Part shown: one piece after another, positions 29,958 to 42,665 of the stretch
Layout of the letters: every line of letters begins with the position of its first letter
Position numbering within the stretch: the first letter of the stretch is position 1
Origin: a virus
Lineage: Duplodnaviria > Heunggongvirae > Uroviricota > Caudoviricetes
IMG/VR virus record: IMGVR_UViG_2529293147_000015
Length of the DNA stretch: 49,846 nucleotides
Strand: one strand, 5' to 3'
Made by a program: the position numbers and the translations under genes
Notes under the pieces: model-generated
Told to the model about the DNA's origin: nothing
Seen by the model: the letters and a program-made list of their open reading frames with translations, nothing else
The model's database searches: none

Positions 29958-30332
29958 TCAGTCCATGTCCAGCTTGATATCAAGCATCATCAACATGCCG
30001 TCAACTATCCCTTCAGCCTTTTGCAACAAACGGCCAACCCAGCAATCCGAACGACCATGCTTTCGTGCTAGCGCCATAAACGTCATGCCCGCCACGTAAT
30101 AATCTACCAGCAAATCGTGTAATTCTTTGTTGTTCTTATTCAACCGGGCCATACAGCCACAAATGATCATTGCGTCATCGTCGGAACATTGCGGACGCGA
30201 TTTAACTTTCGACGGTATTAATCCTTTAAAGCCAGCAGCAATCGATGGCCATGTGACATCCTCATGATTATTTGCCACCCACGCTCCCCAACGCTCAAGA
30301 ACCATCTGAATATCACGTGCCATCGTTACCAC
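29958..30332 (-). CDS. Q: Late-gene antiterminator Q
   Basis: 124-aa [31 protein letters not shown]... with Cys/His cluster, typical of Q-family proteins of E. coli prophages. Confidence 0.75.
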
Positions 30333-30684
30333 CTGTAATTTCGTAAATCTTCACGCCCAGCCGACCACCAGGTACAAGCTGACTGCGCACAATATTAATT
30401 TCATCAAACTGCTCGTCGTCGATAAGCAGTCCCGCATGTGTCAGTGCATCCAGTGGCGCTTTCAGGATATTGTCCAGGTCACGACGGCGCTTATCCGGTG
30501 GCTCCACAATAATCCTGATCGCCAGCCTTCCGGACAGATTTAATTTCAGTCGCTGCTGGCGAACAATGAGCGCCACATCACGGCGATAACGCTCACCGGC
30601 TTTTGATACAAAATATGTACTGCCACGACGTCGCCAGTAGGTGTTCACCGTTGGCGGGTAAGGCAAAACAAACTCTATACGCAT
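30313..30684 (-). CDS. rusA: Holliday junction resolvase RusA
   Basis: RRRDLDN catalytic motif, ~123 aa. Confidence 0.85.
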
Positions 30685-30696
30685 CAGTAACCTCTT

Positions 30697-31746
30697 TTAC
30701 CCGAGCACGCCGGTTGCAAAGGCGTGATCAAGAAAACGAAAAATTAAATCAATCTGGGAACCATGCTTTTCTTCAAATGCCAGCGGATCAGCATGAAGTT
30801 CATTGTGATGCTCCCGGCACAGCGGTAGCGTGAAAATATCGTGGGCTTTTGTCCCCATCCCTCCCTGACCGTGACCAATCAGGTGATGGGGATCGTCGGC
30901 TGGCTTACCACAACATGCACACGGCTGTGTCTTAACCCAGCGCGTGTACTTTTCGTTAACCCAGCGGCGACGTTTAGGTCGCTTCATGAAAGATTCAGGA
31001 GACTCCGGATCAACGGCAATGCTGACCACCGTCTTTTCCTGTGGTGGGTTCTGTTGCTGGTGGGCGTGAGGCGGTAGCACAATATTTTTTGTGCGCTGCT
31101 TCAGTATGCTGGTGGCTGTCTGCTCTCCCGGTATGATGTCGCTTTCACGGTACACAGAGCGGATTTTTTCCGCACGTAACCCCAGAGAACGACGTAATAC
31201 TGCCTCCGGAAGCGCGTCCGCCACCTGATTGCGGACCGCCCACCAGGATAATTCAGCCAGCGATAATTCCCGCTCCTGCGTGCCATTCACTGCATGGCGT
31301 ATGACGTCAATCATCCATGCTGACAGGTTTTGATGAGCAAGTTGCCCGAGTGATTCGGATGTCTGGTCACGCAGCTGGTTGTCGCAGTGCCAGCACAGCA
31401 CCATCGCGCCGGTACCGTAACGATGTATGACGGTTTCACTGTGATGGTAGTCACCATGAGGCCACTGGCAGGATTTAACATGACGCAGGAGCCAGTCAGA
31501 CAGTGCACCAGCGCCGCCGGCAGCACGAATCACCCGCTCATCGCTGAAAAATGGCAGCAGAGATTTGTCTTCCGCCAGCGGCTGGCGAACGGCAGGAACG
31601 ACCCCGGACGGCAGACCGCGCATGCTTTTTGGCTCCGGTTCAACCAGCACTCTGCCGTTATGGAATACCTGCATGGATTCACGACCTGGCTTAACGATAA
31701 CCACCCCAAGTTCCGGCACCAGAACAGGTCGAAGTAATACCCGCAC
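30697..31746 (-). CDS. NinG/DUF968-like phage protein with C-terminal Cys/His (HNH-like) motif
   Basis: C-terminal ...CACCGKPADDPHHLIGHGQGGMGTKAHDIFTLPLCREHHNELH; located in the nin region beside rusA. Confidence 0.55.
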   Translation of the reverse strand: MRVLLRPVLVPELGVVIVKPGRESMQVFHNGRVLVEPEPKSMRGLPSGVVPAVRQPLAEDKSLLPFFSDERVIRAAGGAGALSDWLLRHVKSCQWPHGDYHHSETVIHRYGTGAMVLCWHCDNQLRDQTSESLGQLAHQNLSAWMIDVIRHAVNGTQERELSLAELSWWAVRNQVADALPEAVLRRSLGLRAEKIRSVYRESDIIPGEQTATSILKQRTKNIVLPPHAHQQQNPPQEKTVVSIAVDPESPESFMKRPKRRRWVNEKYTRWVKTQPCACCGKPADDPHHLIGHGQGGMGTKAHDIFTLPLCREHHNELHADPLAFEEKHGSQIDLIFRFLDHAFATGVLG

Positions 31747-31747
31747 G

Positions 31748-32149
31748 TTACCTCCAGATGCGTTGCTGGAATGTGCGGGACGGACGCGGTGGGCGTTCGG
31801 AATAAGGGAGTCTGACGTAGATTATCCAGTGACGATAATCGAGGCTGAGGGCTTTCCTAAACTCATACCCACGTCTGCGGTAGTTATGAATCAGCCATTC
31901 GGCCTGTTCTTCAGTGCAGGGGTCGTGCTGATACCAGTCATATTTGAATGCGTGCGAACACCGCCCGTGCCTGCTGGCACGAACGGTATCAGAATTGTGT
32001 AATTTGGTCTTGTGCGCCATCTGTTTTCTCTGCTGGCGCAGCAGGTGCCAGTTGTTCAGGCTGGCATGTGGATTGTAAACCAGGATGCTCAGAAAAAACA
32101 AAACCCGCCGAAGCGGGTTAAGTGCGGGTGCATTGAGGATGCCTGACAC
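31748..32149 (-). CDS. Hypothetical nin-region protein (start uncertain)
   Basis: ORF with Cys/His-rich basic C-terminal part; 1-nt gap to the downstream gene. Confidence 0.4.
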   Translation of the reverse strand: MSGILNAPALNPLRRVLFFLSILVYNPHASLNNWHLLRQQRKQMAHKTKLHNSDTVRASRHGRCSHAFKYDWYQHDPCTEEQAEWLIHNYRRRGYEFRKALSLDYRHWIIYVRLPYSERPPRPSRTFQQRIWR

Positions 32150-32193
32150 ATCAGAGGTGGCGAGGGATTTCTCCCCCGCCAGGTCTCTTACTC

Positions 32194-32343
32194 CTCAGGT
32201 TCGTAAGCTGTGAAGACAGCGACCTCCGTCTGGCCGGTTCGGATTCGTACCTCGCAGAGGTCTTTCCTCGTTACCAGTGCCGTCACTATGACGGTTAAAC
32301 AGATGACGATCAGGGCGATTAACATCGCCTTTCGCTGCTTCAT
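32194..32343 (-). pseudogene. hok/gef-family type I toxin, C-terminus frameshifted by a 1-nt insertion
   Basis: Reads MKQRKAMLIALIVICLTVIVTALVTRKDLCEVRIRTGQTEV then RCLHSLRT*; removing one C near 32220 restores the canonical ...VAVFTAYEPEE* ending; small upstream ORF (32340..32399) whose stop overlaps the hok ATG. Confidence 0.6.
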
Positions 32344-33062
32344 AGCCCGCTTCTCCTTGACCTTTCGGTCCGTAAGAGGCTAATCTCTATGTGTCGCATA
32401 GATATGGCCTCAGATTAATGTTAAGCGTCTTGCAGGACGCGTAATGTTAACTGGGGCTTTTCTCTATCTGCCTTTGGTGTTCATGCCTGAGGCAGATAGC
32501 CTCAAGCACCCGCAGCAATTCTACTTAACTCCCGTCACCTCGCCAATATAAAATCAATCAGAAAGGCGATCCATAAGAACAACAGCAAGACAATAAATTG
32601 CCATTACAGCCGCAATAGCTAGCGCACATTTGAGAACCAGCACGACAACCTCCTGTATTGGACGTACACCAGTTCTGATAAATATGAGGCTGTCTCATCA
32701 TTGATTCAATATAACTATTGGGTATAGTTTCTGTGATTTTGTTCTGTAGAAATGGAACACAACAACCAGTCACCACCAGCACTTCTTTAAATACGCCAAG
32801 TCCGACGCAAGCTAACCTTCTAGTCCGCTTTGAGCGAGGAGCGGACCAAACCCGGCCAACTGACTCTTAAAGGGGCCGCAGGAATTTTTCGTCTGAACTT
32901 TCGAAGCTCCTCTCCCTGAAGACAGAAAACTTCTGTGTGCTGTGGGAATATTGAATCTTTGCATTAGATATAAATAATTTTATCCCGCCTGAAGTTTACA
33001 TTATTTTATTTATCTGTTTTTCTAAATCAGACTGCACTCCTTACTTAAATCAGGAGCCAGTC

Positions 33063-34262
33063 ATGCCATTTGTTATTTATGTGTTTACTATCAGTGCCTT
33101 TGCGCTCGGACTCGCGGAATTTGTCCCCATTGGGCTGACAGACGTTATGGCTCAGGGGTTGTGTGTGGGTGTGGAGCAGACCGGGGCAGCGGTTACAACC
33201 TATGCACTGGGGGCAACGTTCGCGGCACCCGTACTGTCTGCGCTGACAGCAAGCTGGAGCCGGAAAAATGTAATGCTTACAACTGCCGTTGTGTTTACTG
33301 CCGGTAGTCTGGCGGCCGCGTTTGCAGCCACATTACCTCAGCTCCTGTTAGCGCGGTTCATTGCTGGTCTGGGACACGGCCTGTTTCTGGCTGCGGCATC
33401 CAGTACCGCAGCTCGTCTTGCTGGACCGGGTAAAGCAGGCAGAGCGGTGGCTGTGGTATTTGGTGGCTTTACTCTGGCGATGGCAATCGGCGTACCGCTG
33501 AGTACATGGTTGGGGGGGGTGGTCTCATGGCGTCCAGTTCTCGGCGCTATTGCCGCTTTTGGCGCGTTCGGATTCCTTGGACTGTTGTTCGGTATGAAAG
33601 ATCCCGTACGCAGCGTGCCCGGTGAACATAGTGACTCAGCAATGCAGAATATCGGCATGCTGTTTAACCGTAAGTTGCTGGCCGGCGCGCTGGTTACGGT
33701 GCTGGCGTATGCAGGCTCGTTTACGGCTTACACCTTTATCGCACCTATTCTGACGCAGGTGACAGGGGTTACCGGAGCAACGGTGAGTCTGTTTATGCTG
33801 GTTTACGGTATTACAGCTGCGGTAGGTAATATTCTTGGTGGGAAACTTACCGACAGCATGGGGGTTAATCGTGCCAATATACTCATCATTAGCGGCATTG
33901 TTGTTGTCGTGCTTGGTATGTGGCTGCTGTCATCCTCACCGGTGAGCATGGGCATTCTGGTTGCGCTGCTGGGTATGGTGACATTTGCCGCAGTGCCGGC
34001 ACTGCAGGCCCGTCTGATTGGTGTCGCTGAGCAACATGCTCCTCATGCGCATGGTGTTGCTGCCGGCCTGAATATTGCGGGCTTCAACTCAGGTATAGCG
34101 CTGGGATCAGTACTGGGCAGCATTACTATAAGCCACGCCGGTATCGTGTATACCGGTATCAGCGGTGCGATTGTTTCTCTGCTCGGCCTGCTGTTGCTGC
34201 TTGCACAAATCCGTCGCAGCCACAGTCGTAAATTTCAACAGGTTAAAATCGTAGGCCAGTAA
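33063..34262 (+). CDS. MFS transporter (12-TM efflux type)
   Basis: 399-aa polytopic membrane protein with characteristic Gly-rich TM helices. Confidence 0.8.
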   Translation: MPFVIYVFTISAFALGLAEFVPIGLTDVMAQGLCVGVEQTGAAVTTYALGATFAAPVLSALTASWSRKNVMLTTAVVFTAGSLAAAFAATLPQLLLARFIAGLGHGLFLAAASSTAARLAGPGKAGRAVAVVFGGFTLAMAIGVPLSTWLGGVVSWRPVLGAIAAFGAFGFLGLLFGMKDPVRSVPGEHSDSAMQNIGMLFNRKLLAGALVTVLAYAGSFTAYTFIAPILTQVTGVTGATVSLFMLVYGITAAVGNILGGKLTDSMGVNRANILIISGIVVVVLGMWLLSSSPVSMGILVALLGMVTFAAVPALQARLIGVAEQHAPHAHGVAAGLNIAGFNSGIALGSVLGSITISHAGIVYTGISGAIVSLLGLLLLLAQIRRSHSRKFQQVKIVGQ

Positions 34263-34273
34263 AGGGAGGTTAT

Positions 34274-34966
34274 ATGCTTACCCGTGAAAATATGCTTAAT
34301 GGCACATTTGTCAGGGTGCATGAAGCGCTGCTCCCGGCGAATATGCTCTGGGACGCTGAAAAAATACGCGCATCAATGAACTCTACTCTGGAGGAGCGCC
34401 CGACGGGTGCTCCTTTCTGGATATTTGCCTACGGGTCATTGATGTGGAATCCCGTGCTGGCAATTGAAGAAATGCAACGGGCCCGTCTGAAAGGATGGCA
34501 GCGCAGTTTCTGCATTCGTTTGATATCCGGACGAGCGACTCCTGATGTCCCCGGCAGGATGTTATCGCTCGACGAAGGTGGAATTACCGAAGGGATTGCG
34601 TTCAGACTGCCGGAATCGACTCTTATTAATGAGCTGGAAATTGTCTGGACGCGCGAGATGATAACCGGTCTTTACCGTCCGGTCTGGGCAGACGTTTCGC
34701 TAGGAAACGGTGAGGAAATTCAGGCGCTGGCTTTCGTATCAGACAGACTGCATCCGCATTATGAACAGGACAATCTTACAGCGACCGTAGCATTGAGCAT
34801 CGCATCTGCCCGTGGAGACATTGGCACGAATGCAGATTATGTATGGAAACTGCAGGCCACTCTGGGTGCGTTGGGAATACGGGATGATTACGTGAGTGAA
34901 CTGGCCCTTGCTCTGCATGAGGCTCCCTGTAACGATAAACTTCATCAGCGAGGCGCTTCACTATGA
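34274..34966 (+). CDS. ChaC-like gamma-glutamylcyclotransferase family protein
   Basis: FWIFAYGSLMWNP motif and ...LWTREMITG... Confidence 0.75.
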   Translation: MLTRENMLNGTFVRVHEALLPANMLWDAEKIRASMNSTLEERPTGAPFWIFAYGSLMWNPVLAIEEMQRARLKGWQRSFCIRLISGRATPDVPGRMLSLDEGGITEGIAFRLPESTLINELEIVWTREMITGLYRPVWADVSLGNGEEIQALAFVSDRLHPHYEQDNLTATVALSIASARGDIGTNADYVWKLQATLGALGIRDDYVSELALALHEAPCNDKLHQRGASL

Positions 34967-35844
34967 GCCATCTGAGCCATCTGCGAACGTTTCTTGAGGC
35001 CTATCGCTCTGGCTCCTTTTCAAAGGCGGCAGAACTACTGGGCATCACTCAGCCCGCGGCGTCACAGCATATCCAGTCTCTTGAGACTCTGGTTGGTAAG
35101 CGTCTGTTTATCAGGCAGGCCAGAGGCGTGACGGCAACCGAAGCTGCGGATGAGCTTGCCCGCTCAGTTTCACCCTTCATTGATGGTCTGGAAGAAAAGC
35201 TGTCCTCTTTCCGGTCAGGCTCTGTACACGGGGGAACAATTAATCTGGCAGGACCGCCAGATTTTATTCATTCCCGGCTTGGGACAGTAATGGCTCCACT
35301 AATGAAGGAGGGGTATCGCTTACGCTTTCATACCGGCAATAAGCAACGTATTTATTCCCTTTTGCATGACGGGAGCGCCGATCTCGCTGTTACCGCATCT
35401 ATGCCTGATGACCGTCTGTACGGCTATGCACATCTACTGACTGAACGCATGCTCCTTGTTCATGCTCCCGCCATGTCAGAGATCATCGGATCAGAACCTG
35501 GTGCTGAAACGCTTGCCTCATTACCGCTGATTGCTTATGACGAAGAGTTGCCACTGATTAGAGCGCTCTGGGCCTCCATGTTTCAGAGAGCCCCTGAGAT
35601 GCAGGCTACATTCACCATTCCGGATTTACGTATTATCCGCGACTTGGTCTGTGACGGCCACGGGTGGACAGTGCTGCCGGATTATCACTGTGACAATGAC
35701 CTGAAAAGTGGTCGCCTGATTTCAGTGACCCCTGCAGACCTCGCTCCGACTAATCATCTTTATCTGGTCTGGAACAAAAGGACGGCTAATAACAGCCGAA
35801 CCGCCTATGTTCGGGATTACATTCTTAAAACGTTTCCGCGTTGA
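34963..35844 (+). CDS. LysR-family transcriptional regulator
   Basis: N-terminal HTH (LRTFLEAYRSGSFSKAAELLGITQPAASQHIQSLE) plus substrate-binding domain; start overlaps the ChaC-like stop. Confidence 0.85.
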   Translation: MSHLSHLRTFLEAYRSGSFSKAAELLGITQPAASQHIQSLETLVGKRLFIRQARGVTATEAADELARSVSPFIDGLEEKLSSFRSGSVHGGTINLAGPPDFIHSRLGTVMAPLMKEGYRLRFHTGNKQRIYSLLHDGSADLAVTASMPDDRLYGYAHLLTERMLLVHAPAMSEIIGSEPGAETLASLPLIAYDEELPLIRALWASMFQRAPEMQATFTIPDLRIIRDLVCDGHGWTVLPDYHCDNDLKSGRLISVTPADLAPTNHLYLVWNKRTANNSRTAYVRDYILKTFPR

Positions 35845-35888
35845 TGTTTGAAACGGATGATTGGCGATGCGTATCATAAGTTACGTAT

Positions 35889-35918
35889 GTCCGCTTCTGG
35901 CACAAAGCAGACGCCCAC
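35889..35918. repeat. Direct repeat copy 1 (GTCCGCTTCTGGCACAAAGCAGACGCCCAC)
   Basis: ~30-bp imperfect direct repeat of 39562..39591; the pair brackets the DUF2254 and BCCT genes. Confidence 0.5.
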
Positions 35919-35974
35919 TCTCACGCGAATGCTTTGCCCTTGACTTGCCAACAACCGTATCGCTTGCTCCGCAA

Positions 35975-37267
35975 CTATGGTTTTTTATTAGAACCTTCGC
36001 CACTAAATAAATTATAATAAATTGATTTTATTAGATATCTGTCAGAATCTATATGGTCAGCACGAGTAGCATGCTCTAATGTTTCAAATGCTAGGGTTTG
36101 TGCGGCTTCAGCAAAAATTCCAGGCCAACCCTTACTCAGCATCGACAGTCCTTTAAGTACCCTTATCTGAATTTCCCTCATACTGGCACCATCGCGCGCA
36201 ACAGGTGAGAAAAAGTCTTCAAGTAGATCGTTATTCTGAAGTGGTGCAACATGTACAGAAGGATATTTCACTTCTATTTCATCAGATTTATTCTGCGCGT
36301 AAGCGGAAAGTATACGTACACCTCTGCCAATGACATCAATGGCGGTTCCAGGATCGTTCACTGCGGGGGAAAGGGCTCGGCAGGCTATTTCGGCCATGAC
36401 GCTAAGACAAAATCGGGGGTCCTGAGCAAATGAACGTACATCCGAGACAATAATCGTCTCAAGTAAATCGGTGCTGATTGATGACTCCTGGCCCTGACTC
36501 AGGTACAAAACTGGCGTGGACGGATGTATGAAACTGCCCGGCTGCGCCACGAGGTATACATGACGGGGATCATTGGTCAGCAGCTTGCTGAGTTTCACCA
36601 TATCAACATATTCAACATAGCCAATCTTTTTCGGATAAACTGCAACCGTTCCTTTCGGCTGTTCATTGTTCTCAAGCCAAGGATATCCGCCGAGACAGGG
36701 ATTTCTTGCTCTCGCAATAAATGTTTCGATGGCCGCCTGTTCTACTTTTGCCGTTGTCTCACCAACCCTCCCCAGAGAGGTCAAATGCTGTATCCAGCGA
36801 AGCAATGTGATGAGGATTAAGGCAATGACAACCAGTGTTACAATGAATAAAATGACTCTCCCCCTTTCTCCATAAGCTCCCATATTGAGGGCAATAATCC
36901 CTACCAGACTGAAGAGAAAAGAACCGATGAAGGTGGCCAGTACATTTTGTGTGGTGACGTCTTCAACAACTAAACGAGTAGCTCTGGGAGTCACATTAGT
37001 AGTGGCTGAACCGTAGGCTGTGACCATGATGCTCAGCGAAAATGTGGTCACTGCCAGCATACTCGATGCCAGTATGTTCAGAATGTTATCGACTGCTTCC
37101 GCACCAACCTTCACGGAAACCGACTCAGGTATCATTGATTTAAAAAGAATTGATAAAAGGGCCGTTATTATTGCGACAATTGCGAATAACGTTGCCCTGA
37201 ACCATAGTTTTTTAAATGTCTGCTTCAGCATCCATTTCCAGCGTGAAATCATTCTGCATTCCCTCAT
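35975..37267 (-). CDS. DUF2254-type integral membrane protein
   Basis: 430-aa ORF with N-terminal TM bundle and soluble C-terminal domain. Confidence 0.6.
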   Translation of the reverse strand: MRECRMISRWKWMLKQTFKKLWFRATLFAIVAIITALLSILFKSMIPESVSVKVGAEAVDNILNILASSMLAVTTFSLSIMVTAYGSATTNVTPRATRLVVEDVTTQNVLATFIGSFLFSLVGIIALNMGAYGERGRVILFIVTLVVIALILITLLRWIQHLTSLGRVGETTAKVEQAAIETFIARARNPCLGGYPWLENNEQPKGTVAVYPKKIGYVEYVDMVKLSKLLTNDPRHVYLVAQPGSFIHPSTPVLYLSQGQESSISTDLLETIIVSDVRSFAQDPRFCLSVMAEIACRALSPAVNDPGTAIDVIGRGVRILSAYAQNKSDEIEVKYPSVHVAPLQNNDLLEDFFSPVARDGASMREIQIRVLKGLSMLSKGWPGIFAEAAQTLAFETLEHATRADHIDSDRYLIKSIYYNLFSGEGSNKKP

Positions 37268-37315
37268 ATTGCAGCCGGGATAAATAAATGCCGCCTCTGT
37301 GGCGGCATGTTGCTG

Positions 37316-39319
37316 TTAACGAACCAGATGCAGGAAGTGCAGGTGTTTTTCGTACTGGTCCAGTATGTCATTAATCAGCTGTTCCTGATTCCAGCCCATT
37401 ACATCATAATTTTGGCCGCCCTCTTTGAGATAGACTTCAGCGCGATAATATCGATGTTGTTCACTCTGCTGCTCATCATTATCCAGCGCAGCGAGCGCGA
37501 AGGTCGGTGAGTTATACCCGCGAAGCCTCACTTCATATATATAATTCAGCTCGTTGCCCAAATCGACTTCAAGGCGAATACGATCCTCGGCGGCGTCACT
37601 GATGTGGCTTATCGTTCCCTGCTTGTTAAGTTCCTCCTGAACCAGCGTCATGGCGGGTTGGATAATGTCGTCCATAAAACGTTTCACAAGAGAGCGCTTC
37701 GGCAAATACGCGATATTGCGTAACCTTCTCTGCCAGGGAATTGGGTTACGTGCAGCCGTAGGAGCAATAGTCGCCATGCTAAGGCTTTCACGCTTGGTCA
37801 AATCCCGACGCAGGGCTTTTAACAGTCCGTATATGGATATTAATAAGATAACTGAGAAGGGCAATGCACTCGCTATCGTTACGGTTTGCAACGCACTCAG
37901 CCCCCCTGCGATCAGCAGGGCAATAGCAACAACGCCCATGAGCGATGCCCAGAAAATTCGCTGCCAGACGGGCGTGTTTGCCACCCCACCTGATGCCAGA
38001 GTATCCACAACCATTGCCCCCGAATCAGCAGACGTTACAAAGAAGACGATGACCATCGCCATTGCAATGAATGACAGCACGGAAGAGAACGGGAAATGCT
38101 CCAGGAAATTAAACAGGGCAAGCGCAACATCCTGCTGAACGGTATTGGCGAGGTCAGTGGCGCCCTGGTTCATGATGAGATAGATGGCGCTGTTTCCAAA
38201 CACCGTCATCCACATGAGCGTAAAGCCGGCGGGAACAAACAACACGCCAGTCACGAACTCACGAATTGTCCTGCCGCGGGAAACGCGTGCAATGAACATA
38301 CCTACAAACGGCGACCATGAAAGCCACCATCCCCAGTATAATAATGTCCAGCCCCCCAGCCAGTTGCTCGACTTGGGTTCATACGCGTAAAGGTTGAACG
38401 TTTTACTCACCAGTTCCGACAGATAACCACCCGTATTTTCCACAAATGACTTCAGCAGAAGCACAGTGGGACCCAGGCACAAGACCAGCGCCAGGAGCAA
38501 CACCGCCAGGCCCAGATTAAGCTCAGACAGGATGCGTATTCCCTTGTCCAGGCCGGACACCACCGAAATCGTCGCTAACCCCGTGATGACCACGATCAAA
38601 ATGACCTGTACCGTTTCATTGATGGGCACGCCGAAAAGATGGTTCAAACCGGCATTCACCTGCAATACACCGTAACCCAGTGATGTTGCAACGCCAAAGA
38701 CAGTGCCTATCACGGCGAAGATATCAACCGCGTGGCCTATAGGCCCGTAAATGCGATCGCCGATAATGGGATAGAGCGCAGAACGCAGCGTTAAAGGCAG
38801 ACCGTGACGGTAACTGAAAAAGGCCAGAATCAGCGCCACGATGGCATAAATTGCCCATGCGTGCAGACCCCAGTGGAAGAACGTCAGGCGCATGGCTTCC
38901 TTCGCTGCCGCAACGGTCTCTGGAGTGCCGACAGGTGGCGAAAGATAATGCATCACAGGTTCGGCAACGCCAAAGAACATCAGGCCGATCCCCATCCCTG
39001 CCGAAAAAAGCATCGCGAACCAGGAGTGGTAGCTGAAATCAGGCTGCGCATGGTCTGGGCCCAGCTTTATATCACCGTAACGTGAGAGTCCAAGGAACGT
39101 GACGCTCAGTAAAATCAGGGCCACAGCAAGTATGTAGAACCAGCTGGCATTCGTGAAGATTTGTTGCTGAAGTAGTTTAAAATTTTTGTCGGCGACATCC
39201 GGGAATACGGCGGCAAAGGCGACAAGAAGGAAAATTAGCAAAGCAGATGTAAAGAATACCGCTTTGTTAATCTGGCTTGTAGACTTCTTTGGGGTTGTAT
39301 CATTTTCACTCATAATCAT
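37316..39319 (-). CDS. BCCT-family (betaine/carnitine/choline) transporter
   Basis: 667 aa; BCCT signature around WTLLYWGWWLSWSPFVGMFIARVSRGRTIREF. Confidence 0.85.
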   Translation of the reverse strand: MIMSENDTTPKKSTSQINKAVFFTSALLIFLLVAFAAVFPDVADKNFKLLQQQIFTNASWFYILAVALILLSVTFLGLSRYGDIKLGPDHAQPDFSYHSWFAMLFSAGMGIGLMFFGVAEPVMHYLSPPVGTPETVAAAKEAMRLTFFHWGLHAWAIYAIVALILAFFSYRHGLPLTLRSALYPIIGDRIYGPIGHAVDIFAVIGTVFGVATSLGYGVLQVNAGLNHLFGVPINETVQVILIVVITGLATISVVSGLDKGIRILSELNLGLAVLLLALVLCLGPTVLLLKSFVENTGGYLSELVSKTFNLYAYEPKSSNWLGGWTLLYWGWWLSWSPFVGMFIARVSRGRTIREFVTGVLFVPAGFTLMWMTVFGNSAIYLIMNQGATDLANTVQQDVALALFNFLEHFPFSSVLSFIAMAMVIVFFVTSADSGAMVVDTLASGGVANTPVWQRIFWASLMGVVAIALLIAGGLSALQTVTIASALPFSVILLISIYGLLKALRRDLTKRESLSMATIAPTAARNPIPWQRRLRNIAYLPKRSLVKRFMDDIIQPAMTLVQEELNKQGTISHISDAAEDRIRLEVDLGNELNYIYEVRLRGYNSPTFALAALDNDEQQSEQHRYYRAEVYLKEGGQNYDVMGWNQEQLINDILDQYEKHLHFLHLVR

Positions 39320-39561
39320 TTATTCCATTAATTAAATCCGCACTGGATAGAAGGTACTACCTCTCACAGAGTAGCAAAGTTCAACTGGCTATGCGGGGTT
39401 AATCGGAATGCATGGTGGAATGAGTGCCGATACAAATCATCCTATATTCTAAGGAGTTTTAAGTTACTCAGCCTGCCAATTACTGGGGCATTTAATTTGT
39501 ATGATCTGTATCAAAGCTGGGATATAAGTTAAGTGAAGTATATTAGGCACGAATTACCAGC

Positions 39562-39591
39562 GTCTGCTCTTGGCACAAAGCGGACAACCAC
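39562..39591. repeat. Direct repeat copy 2 (GTCTGCTCTTGGCACAAAGCGGACAACCAC)
   Basis: Matches 35889..35918 at ~24 of 30 positions. Confidence 0.5.
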
Positions 39592-39653
39592 GCTAGCTCT
39601 ACCCTGTGCCACAAAATGTCAATTTGCATCTGAACTAATGCACTTTAATCTCG

Positions 39654-40076
39654 TCACTTCAATAAATACCGAACATCCCCCTGATAAAACGACAATATGC
39701 GCTGCATAACTTCGCTCTTCCGGCACTCGCGACAGATTATGTTTAGGCGACTGTCGTAGCGACGTATTTCTCCGTCAGGTAATGACCAGATAAGGTCCGG
39801 ATCAACCACAACCGGTTTCTTCAGCTTTGCCCTCGATAATTTTTTGCGGGCATTTTGCCAGTCTTTACGAGCCTGTTCAGACGGGAATAACCCGTAGCCA
39901 GAATTGTATACATCGCCACTGGCAACCAGCTCTCTGGCCAGAACGCTCATCAGATATCTTGTTGCCCCAGTTTTAGCTTCCAGTTGTCGTAACGTCTCGC
40001 GCCCACTCTGGCGTACGAGTTCAAGAACCTGCCCTTTAATTTTTTCCCGCTCTTCTTGTGTAAAAACTTTTGCCAC
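39654..40076 (-). CDS. Hypothetical phage early protein, possibly DNA-binding
   Basis: 140-aa ORF downstream of the replication initiator. Confidence 0.5.
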   Translation of the reverse strand: MAKVFTQEEREKIKGQVLELVRQSGRETLRQLEAKTGATRYLMSVLARELVASGDVYNSGYGLFPSEQARKDWQNARKKLSRAKLKKPVVVDPDLIWSLPDGEIRRYDSRLNIICRECRKSEVMQRILSFYQGDVRYLLK

Positions 40077-40116
40077 AAGCCCTCCTGAAAATTACCTCAT
40101 GACCAGAAATTAACAC

Positions 40117-41193
40117 TTACCCCCTGAAGCCCGGCGGAATTTCGTTATCCGGTTCAGAAATATGATTCACACAACGCTGGTTGTTCGTGCCGCTTACCGG
40201 GAGCAACCAGGGGTTCTCAAAATTCCGGTCCGGTCCAAAAAACGTCGTCGCTCGCTGAACAAATTCCGTTCCCGTTTTCCCGGTAGCCGCCAAGTATCTT
40301 GCGTAACGCCTCACGCCATCCAGCATGGCCTCTGGTGGCACCCCCTCGCGTAATCTGGCCTTCCAGGCACTGAAAGCGGATTTCTTCGGGTTTGCCCCAG
40401 CACGCAACGGGTACTCCCGCCAGACCTGTTCGAACACATCCGGATAATCCACTCGTCCCACAGACTGCCCGGTGTTTTCCGGGACTACCCGATCGGCTTC
40501 CCGCTGAATGGCGGAATCGGCTTCAGGGTGCTGCAGTTGGTGTGATTGCTCCGCCCTTGCGGTCATCACCTGCTGCACAGCGCCCGAATCGGCTTTCAGC
40601 GCATACGCTGAATCGGCTTCCGGTGTCGTGCCTGCTGGCTGACCAAGATTGACGGTCTGAACATCCCCTGCCTGGTTCGTGGCGTTTTTTACGCCATGGA
40701 CCATAGTGTTTTGATCTTCTTGATCTGTATCTTTATCTGTATCTTTATCTGTCGTGACTCGTCGTGACATGTGCGTGACATTTCGTGACGCGCCGTGACA
40801 ATCGCCATTTTGTTCCCGCTTTCTTTCCCTCTCTCGCTGCGCCCTCTTGCGCTCTGCAGGAGATTTTGCGGTTTGCGAAATATTGCCGTTGTCCTCTTTA
40901 AGCACCTGGCGTTTTTCCCATCCAGTGATTAAATCACCATCAAGTACCCGCCCCTGCATCGTCTGCAAAATTGAATCAATTACCTCTTCTGTCACGTCGA
41001 GCGCACTTGCCAAATCTTCTGTCGTGACATCAATGTGACCTCGCGTGACATTTCGTGACGCGCTCACCAGGAGGTGGATATACACTGCCATCACTGTTGC
41101 AATTGGCTGCCCTGACACCCTGGCAATTGTTCGCCACTTAGGGTCATTTGGCATGTCATGCCATAATCTGAGCCAGGCGTTAGCCATACTCAC
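40117..41193 (-). CDS. Replication initiation protein (YdaU/DUF1376-like) with internal iterons
   Basis: 358-aa ORF in the O-gene position after Cro-like and YdaT-like genes; internal CGTGAC iterons. Confidence 0.55.
   Translation of the reverse strand: MSMANAWLRLWHDMPNDPKWRTIARVSGQPIATVMAVYIHLLVSASRNVTRGHIDVTTEDLASALDVTEEVIDSILQTMQGRVLDGDLITGWEKRQVLKEDNGNISQTAKSPAERKRAQRERERKREQNGDCHGASRNVTHMSRRVTTDKDTDKDTDQEDQNTMVHGVKNATNQAGDVQTVNLGQPAGTTPEADSAYALKADSGAVQQVMTARAEQSHQLQHPEADSAIQREADRVVPENTGQSVGRVDYPDVFEQVWREYPLRAGANPKKSAFSAWKARLREGVPPEAMLDGVRRYARYLAATGKTGTEFVQRATTFFGPDRNFENPWLLPVSGTNNQRCVNHISEPDNEIPPGFRG
40721..40806. repeat. Putative replication origin iterons, cluster 1
   Basis: Five CGTGAC copies at ~10-11 bp spacing (40753, 40763, 40774, 40785, 40795) preceded by tandem TATCTTTATCTG. 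Confidence 0.55.
41018..41064. repeat. Putative replication origin iterons, cluster 2
   Basis: CGTGAC repeated at 41023, 41044, 41055; CGTGACATTTCGTGACGCGC shared with cluster 1. Confidence 0.5.
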
Positions 41194-41258
41194 CTCTTTT
41201 GATACCGAATCTTTTTACTCACAAATTGCCGGAAGTGATCCGGTATGAATATTGCGAG

Positions 41259-41684
41259 TCAATGCACAGCCACAATATTTCCTGCAGGGCCACCACGATT
41301 CATCTGGTTGAAACCAGCGATCGCCACTGCGACAAAATCATCAGCGTCTCTCACCAGCCGTTCCCGCGTCTCCACCAGCTCCCGAAACCAGGCTGAACTG
41401 TGGCTGCGCATTCGGGCCACCAGCAGAGGCGGCATTGCTTTTTCGATAGCTGGTAACAACGCCTGAATTTTTTTAACCGCATCAGGGGTGTCTTTCTCCA
41501 CCCAGCGGAAAATTTTCTGAGTATTGCGAGCCAGGGCTTCCGGATGGCTGTCGTTATACAGTTCCGGGAACGTCATTCCCAGCTCGAAATACGCTTTGGT
41601 AATTTTCGCAGCCGGAACTTTTTCACCGTCCGGATGCGCCCAGGCATTCATCGCCATGCGGATGTGTTCATGCTTGATTTTCAT
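41259..41684 (-). CDS. YdaT-like protein (CII-like regulator position)
   Basis: 141-aa ORF MKIKHEHI... immediately downstream of the Cro-like gene. Confidence 0.5.
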   Translation of the reverse strand: MKIKHEHIRMAMNAWAHPDGEKVPAAKITKAYFELGMTFPELYNDSHPEALARNTQKIFRWVEKDTPDAVKKIQALLPAIEKAMPPLLVARMRSHSSAWFRELVETRERLVRDADDFVAVAIAGFNQMNRGGPAGNIVAVH

Positions 41685-41983
41685 GAATCAACTCCATCAG
41701 ATAAGCATGCACTACAATCACCTTCAGCATGAACTACATGTGTTTGCCCCAAACGAATGCCGCTCGCATACTCAGGCCAAATAAGCTCCCAATCATGGGG
41801 TCGTAGCTCCGCCCTACTTACTTGGCCTTCCGTCGCAGATTCGATCATAAGGGCGCGTGTTGGAGATATAGCTGCTCGTCCAGACGCCATTTGCGATAAG
41901 TAAGATGGCGATACACCAAGTCTGGCTGCGAATTTCTTAGCATCACCAACCCTCAATGATTTAATAAACTCTTTTAATGTCAT
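41681..41983 (-). CDS. Cro-like HTH regulator (YdaS-like)
   Basis: HTH segment AKKFAARLGVSPSYLSQMASGR; divergent from the repressor gene. Confidence 0.6.
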   Translation of the reverse strand: MTLKEFIKSLRVGDAKKFAARLGVSPSYLSQMASGRAAISPTRALMIESATEGQVSRAELRPHDWELIWPEYASGIRLGQTHVVHAEGDCSACLSDGVDS

Positions 41984-41991
41984 ACCTTCCT

Positions 41992-42070
41992 CGGTTTAGT
42001 GTTTTTTTTGAGAGTTTAGTGTTTAATAAACCATTAAGTCAAGTATTTGCTTGTTTAGTGATTACTAAAG
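41992..42070. promoter_or_regulatory. OR-like operator and divergent promoter region
   Basis: Three GTTTAGTG copies (41994, 42015, 42053) and palindrome GTTTAATAAAC between the divergent Cro-like and repressor genes. Confidence 0.5.
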
Positions 42071-42081
42071 ATAATTACCAC

Positions 42082-42453
42082 ATGCAAAAAAAAGAAATTC
42101 GCCGTTTACGTCTCAAGGAGTGGTTTAAAGATAAAACTCTGCCACCCAAAGAGAAGAGCTACCTATCTCAACTAATGAGTGGGAGAGCCTCGTTTGGAGA
42201 AAAGGCTGCCAGAAGAATAGAGCAAACATACGGGATGCCGGAAGGGTATCTGGATGCGGAATACGCAGAACAACCGGAGGTTTCTCCACCACATGCAGGG
42301 TTAACGTCTAATCAACTGGAATTATTGCAGATTTTTTCAGCCTTCCCTGAGGATGAGCAACGCCAGATAATCAGCGAGTTAAAGCAGAAAAAAGAATCAA
42401 TGGAAGATCTCATAGCGAGATGGATTGCGGCGCAAAAATGCCGCCGCGCCTGA
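42082..42453 (+). CDS. Prophage repressor / regulator (RacR- or PaaR-like)
   Basis: ORF from MQKKEIRRLRLKEW...; divergent to the Cro-like gene and upstream of the TA pair. Confidence 0.55.
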   Translation: MQKKEIRRLRLKEWFKDKTLPPKEKSYLSQLMSGRASFGEKAARRIEQTYGMPEGYLDAEYAEQPEVSPPHAGLTSNQLELLQIFSAFPEDEQRQIISELKQKKESMEDLIARWIAAQKCRRA

Positions 42454-42473
42454 GTTATAAAACCGGAGGAAAC

Positions 42474-42665
42474 ATGAATAGAGCCCTTTCACCAATGGTT
42501 TCTGAATTTGAAACCATTGAACAAGAAAACAGTTACAACGAATGGCTGCGTGCAAAAGTAGCAACGAGCCTTGCAGATCCACGCCCAGCAATTCCCCATG
42601 ACGAAGTTGAGCGCAGAATGGCAGAACGCTTTGCTAAAATGCGCAAGGAACGGAGCAAGCAGTAA
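42474..42665 (+). CDS. Type II antitoxin (small, PaaA/ParD-like)
   Basis: 63-aa ORF MNRALSPMVSEFETIEQENSYNEWLRAK..., RBS GGAGGA, stop 1 nt before the toxin start. Confidence 0.6.
   Translation: MNRALSPMVSEFETIEQENSYNEWLRAKVATSLADPRPAIPHDEVERRMAERFAKMRKERSKQ

Follow-up and report, generated by a model that had tools for sequence, protein, structure and literature searches.

Does a lambdoid prophage carry its origin of replication inside its own initiator gene? This question is raised by a viral stretch of 49,846 nucleotides, IMG/VR record IMGVR_UViG_2529293147_000015 (the window), in which a sequence-only reading had noticed short repeats within a replication initiator gene and had taken them to mark the likely origin. 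Identical DNA in complete Escherichia coli genomes belongs to a Qin-like lambdoid prophage integrated beside rspB. In this study, we conclude, at a probability of roughly 0.77, that the region is the replication origin of this prophage, located inside the initiator gene and bound by its product. As far as sequence analysis can test it, the earlier claim was supported by the positional conservation of the repeats, their phasing, frozen synonymous sites and a concerted switch of the repeated hexamer. The gene and the elements that carry the argument are as follows.

40117 to 41193, minus strand: replication initiator (replisome-organizer) gene, from the open reading frame list and its match to PHROG 3729
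40753 to 40799, minus strand: zone 1, the promoter-distal iteron array, with five GTCACG cores at 40794-99, 40784-89, 40774-79, 40763-68 and 40753-58
41023 to 41059, minus strand: zone 2, the promoter-proximal iteron array, with GTCACG at 41054-59, 41044-49 and 41023-28 and a degenerate GTCACA at 41034-39
40991 to 40996, plus strand: lone inverted core, reading CGTGAC on the gene strand and lying 32 bp downstream of zone 2
40705 to 40752, minus strand: AT-rich run, candidate DNA-unwinding element, from the GC minimum and a tandem repeat

The open reading frame (ORF) at 40117-41193 matched PHROG 3729, "replication initiation protein", with an E-value of 1.3e-256 (residues 3-358 on model positions 1-356 of 356). 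The corresponding genes of the E. coli phages Tritos, Evi and vB_EcoS-689R5 were 98-99% identical to the window gene and are annotated as replication proteins. Sources name the gene "phage replisome organizer", the name that NCBI gives to relatives, or "DNA replication protein O". Both arrays lie within this ORF, and the earlier placement of the repeats inside a replication initiator gene was thus correct. Five CGTGAC units about one helical turn apart had been described, and these were confirmed at 40753-40799. On the plus strand they begin at 40753, 40763, 40774, 40784 and 40794, with a spacing of 10/11/10/10, and the gene-strand form of the core is GTCACG. The tandem reported beside zone 1 was found as a 12-nt unit, TCTTkATCTGTa, present three times at 40718-40753. 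A second cluster had been placed about 270 bp away; it was present and shared with zone 1 the 20-mer CGTGACATTTCGTGACGCGC, which occurs exactly at both 40774 and 41044, 270 bp apart. Its composition required correction, as it comprises three perfect units (CGTGAC on the plus strand at 41023, 41044 and 41054), one degenerate unit (TGTGAC at 41034, one mismatch) and the inverted one.

The clustering of these hexamers was then compared with the rest of the window. Nine of the 31 exact CGTGAC matches in the whole 49.8 kb fall inside 310 bp, and zone 1, which packs one hexamer five times into 50 bp, is the densest cluster of this kind. When the window was simulated 100 times with a first-order Markov model, no such cluster exceeded three copies. 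These results exclude chance as the source of the arrays. The repeats could also be the shadow of a repeated peptide motif, with no function at the DNA level. The window gene gives this explanation some substance, as the same pentapeptide is encoded in both zones (SRNVT...SRNVT / NATER...NATER). For zone 1 the encoded peptide is the linker CHGASRNVTHMSRRVTT, predicted to be disordered. Zone 2 overlaps codons 45-58 of the winged-helix domain, covering the end of helix 31-47, the next loop and the start of helix 58-65, and the inverted core at 40991-40996 encodes part of D66-V67-T68. Relatives of the gene allow the two levels, peptide and DNA, to be separated.

A scan of IMG/VR with an N-terminal alignment recovered near-identical E. 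coli copies only, whereas a species-level genome scan gave diversity. The comparison set was therefore taken from a scan of one genome per species and contained 52 loci, drawn from Gamma- and Betaproteobacteria and a small number of other groups. Gene positions of homologue repeats were counted from the conserved MANxW start. In about 42 of the 52 loci, both zones contained two or more copies of a single hexamer at fixed gene positions. Class A comprised about 25 species, in which GTCACG was found at 128/138/148/159 (zone 2) and two to five times at about 386-430 (zone 1); many class-A homologues also carried an inverted core at relative position 191. Genes of Pseudomonas and Aeromonas phages were about 70% identical in DNA to the N-terminal half plus the repeat region (window 40721-41176). 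GTCACG was present in both zones of these genes, about 260 bp apart, with ATCTTTATCT beside the distal array.

Diverged homologues without GTCACG carried another hexamer in both zones, namely CGAACG/GAACGC (12 loci), GTAACG (four loci) or TGTAAC (one locus), and ACTACG was found at two loci in zone 1 only. Thus the core hexamer differs among subfamilies, and the two arrays of one gene share the same hexamer. Within each repeat unit only the core was conserved, and the spacers were variable. Successive units were spaced by 10 bp in 137 cases and by 11 bp in 32 cases, and units were found in each of the three reading frames. A period of one turn speaks for recognition on the DNA duplex. Four loci (L111, L113, L120 and L123) had no zone 2 and retained zone 1 and the AT run.

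We tested selection on codons in 23 class-A genes, whose proteins are 60-74% identical to the window protein, using conserved codons that are at least threefold degenerate. The third-position entropy was 0.15 bit in iteron codons vs 1.72 bit in 28 other domain codons. In zone 2 the frozen synonymous sites were V49 (GTC, 23/23), T50 (ACG, 23/23), G52 (GGT, 22/22) and V56 (GTC, 22/22), and R51, between two cores, was free at 1.75 bit. V67, in the inverted copy, was GTG in 19/19. Class B (CGAACG) gave the same picture, with 0.11 vs 1.29 bit. At three loci (L126, L132 and L118) the two zones lie in different frames, and the same DNA core encodes different peptides. The 10/11-bp period also shifts successive cores between frames. 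A coding by-product is excluded because synonymous positions are frozen within the cores and free in their neighbours, and because the same core encodes different peptides in different frames. The peptide-shadow explanation, together with chance, can be regarded as effectively refuted. These results show, on comparative grounds, that the repeats are functional elements at the DNA level and that the DNA sequence itself is selected.

What function the DNA serves was next considered from what lies beside the arrays. The AT-rich run adjoining zone 1 consists of (GATAAA/GATACA)n with three 12-nt tandem units, is purine-rich on the gene strand and encodes DKDTDKDTDQEDQ. The GC content of 0.325 at 40700-40759 is the lowest in the initiator gene. 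Among homologous genes, the lowest-GC 30-mer began between -10 and +60 nt from the end of zone 1 in 37 of 41, even in genes of 60-68% GC. Homologue AT-rich runs are likewise (GATAAA)n or (GATACA)n with a purine-rich coding strand, and encode DKDK or DTDT. The run is also length-polymorphic: E. coli ECL27977 (L138 91-250) carries an in-frame 18-bp expansion, ATCTGTATCTTTATCTGT, with all five iterons unchanged. The most economical reading is a phage theta-type origin, in which iterons are followed by an AT-rich unwinding element, within the linker between a recognition domain and exchangeable recruitment domains.

The arrays could instead be operator or control sites, acting in autoregulation or as a transcription roadblock, or they could titrate or handcuff the initiator between co-resident prophages, with initiation elsewhere. 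Zone 2 accords with such a role, since it lies in codons of a structured domain, at a distance of 230 bp from the AT-rich run, and some lineages dispense with it. Cross-talk between copies is possible because an E. coli genome can hold up to six of them, and iteron DNA in trans is reported to inhibit lambda replication (PMC3349717). However, the lowest-GC, purine-skewed run of the gene almost always adjoins zone 1, and a pure operator would not need one. Neighbour genes also vary among relatives, so that no other candidate binder travels with the repeats. A control role for zone 2 fits within the origin model and is not an alternative to it. We judge it quite improbable that the arrays are control sites and not the origin. 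Because L111, L113, L120 and L123 retain zone 1 and the AT run without zone 2, zone 1 and the AT run are probably the core origin, and zone 2 is probably accessory, for cooperativity or control.

Another protein might also be the ligand, in which case the arrays would be a signal for packaging or recombination, or a centromere-like partition site with repeats of the ParR type (10-11 bp). The two groups of short direct repeats, spaced by one turn, are reminiscent of the parC-type centromeres of plasmid R1, and the junction at which the N- and C-terminal parts of the initiator recombine falls at the AT-rich run. Against this, no partition genes are adjacent, and the element, a lambdoid prophage with int/xis, is an integrating one. 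In every relative the repeats go with the initiator N-terminal domain; the terminase region is distant. A partition, packaging or recombination site is accordingly a very unlikely explanation, and the replication origin remains the preferred one.

The protein encoded by the gene was examined for a plausible binder. Its parts are given below.

40894 to 41187, minus strand: conserved N-terminal winged-helix domain (about residues 3-100), presumed iteron-binding module
40810 to 40860, minus strand: basic helix, residues 112-128, ERKRAQRERERKRE, separating the winged helix from zone 1
40117 to 40716, minus strand: exchangeable C-terminal domain, residues 160-358, with a DnaT-like tail

The whole protein matched no Pfam family at E <= 0.01. 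When the Pfam limit was raised to E = 10, no lambda O family appeared, and only weak matches to Phage_rep_org_N and HTH_Crp_2 were obtained. The Phage_rep_org_N match (PF09681) scored 15.9 bits, below the gathering threshold of 23.3 bits, with E 0.014, and aligned residues 7-125 to model positions 1-119 of 121. An AlphaFold2 model of the N-terminal domain (core predicted local distance difference test score, pLDDT, 85-96) contained three helices, a loop, a helix-turn-helix, a beta-hairpin wing and the basic helix 112-128. The modelled fold is a winged helix closest to the DnaD N-terminal domain, and the helix in the "recognition" position is acidic. Residues 131-146, encoded by the zone 1/AT-run segment, had pLDDT <50 and were predicted to be disordered. 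Among the homologues, no protein module other than the N-terminal domain is invariably found with the repeats.

The C-terminal half recombines independently of the N-terminal half. Residues 160-358 share 63% identity with the initiator of Shigella phage 75/02 Stx, and the N-terminal half of that initiator is unrelated, which places a mosaic junction at the AT-rich linker. By the same search, no comparable hexamer array was found in this unrelated half, a result from which we draw no inference. The last ~24 residues of the window protein show a weak similarity to the tail of DnaT (NCBIfam E 7.5e-4, far under the cut-off; PDB 6aep, E 0.003), with no match to Pfam PF17948. In relatives that share the N-terminal domain, the C-terminal domain is Pfam DnaT (PF17948) or PF09524. 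The downstream partner also varies: Pseudomonas phage phita81A has a Toprim-DnaB primase-helicase, Aeromonas phage pAEv1818 a DnaC/IstB-like ATPase and the Stx phage DnaC. The C-terminal domain is presumed to recruit the host helicase and primosome.

From these features a mechanism can be proposed. The N-terminal winged-helix domain would bind head-to-tail to the GTCACG cores, and all sites would face the same side of the DNA because the cores are one helical turn apart. Four or five protomers would load on each of the two arrays, about 230-260 bp apart. The resulting nucleoprotein complex would destabilise the adjacent AT-rich (GATAAA)n run beyond the promoter-distal array, and the variable C-terminal domain would then bring in the replicative helicase. 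Directly downstream of the initiator in this prophage we found no helicase-loader gene (P or DnaC-like) and no helicase gene, and for this reason the host replication machinery is proposed. We infer that the N-terminal domain does the binding, that the AT run is where the DNA unwinds and that the origin fires at this locus; the second array would serve cooperative complex formation or control. Short non-palindromic cores phased by one turn suggest head-to-tail filaments of monomers on one DNA face. Such an arrangement is familiar from winged-helix proteins such as PhoB/OmpR, which bind 10-11-bp direct repeats, with a short conserved core, head-to-tail on one face of the DNA; these are transcription factors that act at promoters, and no homology is implied.

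The proposed origin was compared with known systems. Ori-lambda, inside gene O, consists of initiator-binding repeats followed by an AT-rich tract, as established experimentally (PMC7466680). In lambda and Shiga toxin (Stx) phages the N-terminal domain and the iterons are inherited together, and modules recombine at the origin site (PMC7466680, PMC8508860). The analogy to ori-lambda drawn by the sequence-only reading held well. In both cases the origin is in mid-gene, direct repeats are followed along transcription by an AT-rich tract, which is purine-skewed in the window, and the linker between an origin-binding and a helicase-recruiting domain is the site. An origin of the lambda kind would have at least four direct repeats conserved in relatives, and the window has five and four units. 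Two differences are caveats to our reading. The window initiator has no detectable homology to lambda O. Its sites are 6-bp cores with variable spacers of 4-5 bp, in one orientation and without dyad, whereas lambda has four to six 19-bp iterons with dyad, bound by O dimers. Also unlike ori-lambda, there are two arrays about 260 bp apart, one of which overlaps codons of the DNA-binding domain, and the P-type loader gene that would follow the initiator is lacking.

The oriL of phage SPP1 lies in gene 38, which encodes the replisome organizer G38P, and contains direct repeats together with an AT-rich unwinding element inside the gene, again established experimentally (PMC6316719). The window resembles it in that repeats and AT-rich element lie in the initiator's own gene, in the end-to-end alignment with Phage_rep_org_N and in the DnaD-like winged helix. 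It differs in that the window protein scores under the Pfam threshold and in that the hosts are proteobacterial and not Firmicutes. SPP1 has a second origin copy 13 kb away, where the window has a second array at 260 bp, and it encodes its own loader and helicase.

Short iterons in two sets are a further known arrangement. Origins of Staphylococcus aureus pathogenicity islands (SaPIs) and the ori/crr of P4 have iterons of 6-8 bp in two sets, which their own initiator binds, and the bipartite cis elements cooperate. The two iteron sets of SaPIs flank an AT-rich region and lie outside the rep gene, and the P4 elements are kilobases apart. The SaPI and P4 initiators are helicase or primase fusions, unrelated to the window protein.

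How the protein would distinguish iteron classes was examined in the region of the basic helix (residues 99-128, window 40810-40900). In class A this region reads AKSAAERKRxQRERE with a nine-residue GNPETGAKS insert, in class B SAERAKxWRExxK, and the Q/W position is taken by Y or F in classes C and D. A single basic-helix residue (Q, W or Y) that sets the iteron class was considered and rejected, since L109 is of the Y type and has GTCACG cores. No residue rule tracking the iteron class was found among the homologues. Because L109 breaks the basic-helix pattern, no specificity code could be derived.

Since zone 2 is written in winged-helix codons, a bipartite origin might interlock origin specificity with the initiator sequence. 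A class switch would then rewrite a surface loop, the arrays would co-evolve, and orthogonal incompatibility classes would let related prophages coexist. We regard this as speculative and rather unlikely. In its strongest form, if true, the iteron-encoded loop would itself help to recognise the iteron. As a specificity determinant, the iteron-encoded loop (residues 46-57) was weakened by L120, which has a GTCAC zone 1 and a non-class-A loop, and further by zone 1 peptides that differ where the frame differs.

The 494-bp origin-recognition module was found in 2078 of 5426 complete E. coli genomes (38%), with up to six copies per genome, and is encoded in over 580 IMG/VR stretches. Phages and prophages of Pseudomonas, Aeromonas, Bordetella, Serratia and many other Proteobacteria carry it as well. 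Within a plasmid collection, it appeared only in large E. coli records and in two phage-sized Pseudomonas records, and in no minimal replicon. Deposited as plasmids, the two latter records, CP137943.1 and CP124671.1 (P. aeruginosa, ~50.9 kb), contain the N-terminal module. They may represent phage genomes that replicate extrachromosomally, which would be consistent with an autonomous replicon.

The examined records of the gene annotate no origin feature, and older RefSeq records call the initiator a "hypothetical protein". No description of the repeats or of the origin of this initiator family was found in open-access papers, which cannot prove absence. The "iterons" of a paper on Pf-5 concern an unrelated island. 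The element is of a known kind, a phage origin in an initiator gene, and its family is uncharacterised and very widespread. The comparative evidence for it is unusually clear, and its layout, bipartite and switching between classes, is of interest.

The result extends the principle known from lambda and SPP1 and overturns nothing. Placing the origin would help to predict replication-competent prophages, to build phage-derived replicons and to interpret replication-dependent amplification of toxins and cargo. The iteron classes offer a route to studying how initiator and origin specificities diversify. The freezing of synonymous sites is a clean case of a cis-element constraining a coding sequence, which matters for codon-based evolutionary analyses and for recoding projects. 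With several copies in one E. coli genome, co-resident prophages that share an iteron class might show cross-talk or titration.

Other signals around the origin were also searched for. No Rfam family matched in 39300-42600, no DnaA box with up to one mismatch was found between 38444 and 45614, and promoter and terminator scans gave signals no better than chance. The (GATAAA)n run was considered as a series of DnaA-trios and dropped; by eye, only half of its trinucleotides fit the published pattern, 3'-[G/A]A[T/A]-5', in any register. Two GATC (Dam) sites lie in the AT-rich run at 40713-40727, TTGATCTTCTTGATCTG. Dam methylation or SeqA could modulate unwinding in E. coli.

An inverted repeat directly past the AT-rich run was also noted.

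40673 to 40703, no strand assigned: imperfect inverted repeat with 13-nt arms and a 5-nt loop, weak evidence for an origin role

Hairpins in the equivalent 120 nt of 39 homologous loci had 6.77 paired bases vs 6.07 in the background, a modest enrichment. A conserved peptide, ARxSR(L/M)P, is also encoded by the hairpin at class-B loci. The inverted repeat of the window resembles the palindrome beside the AT-rich tract of ori-lambda, and may, on this slight evidence, belong to the origin.

The start of the gene was also revised. The sequence-only reading had described a 358-aa protein, and the ORF from the mechanical start, GTG 41193, does have this length. That GTG sits within the Shine-Dalgarno sequence AGAGGTGA of ATG 41187. 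The RefSeq and phage Tritos coding sequences are 1071 bp with a 356-aa product from the ATG. Because the Shine-Dalgarno precedes it and both annotations agree, ATG 41187 is probably the true start, and the real product is probably 356 aa.

Genes resembling Cro/YdaS and CII/YdaT lie upstream of the initiator on the same strand and a DUF977 (Ren-like) gene lies downstream of it; the gene for a CI-like repressor is transcribed divergently. The prophage further contains dicB, ydfABC, exonuclease, xis and int.

In the Serratia metagenome-assembled genome at L125 and the Pantoea sp. at L134, the N-terminal domain is fused, about 320-470 nt past the start, to a GIY-YIG-like segment (YVYYVATT...VGISxNPWAR) that replaces the linker. 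ACTACG repeats at 10-11-bp spacing overlap the codons of the GIY motif in both. These two loci may represent a nuclease-type initiator variant or an inserted homing endonuclease.

Non-phage cargo was found at window ~30000-39400, between the replication module and the hokD/antiterminator region. It encodes a BCCT-family transporter (37316-39319), a DUF2254 protein, a LysR regulator, a gamma-glutamylcyclotransferase and an MFS transporter.

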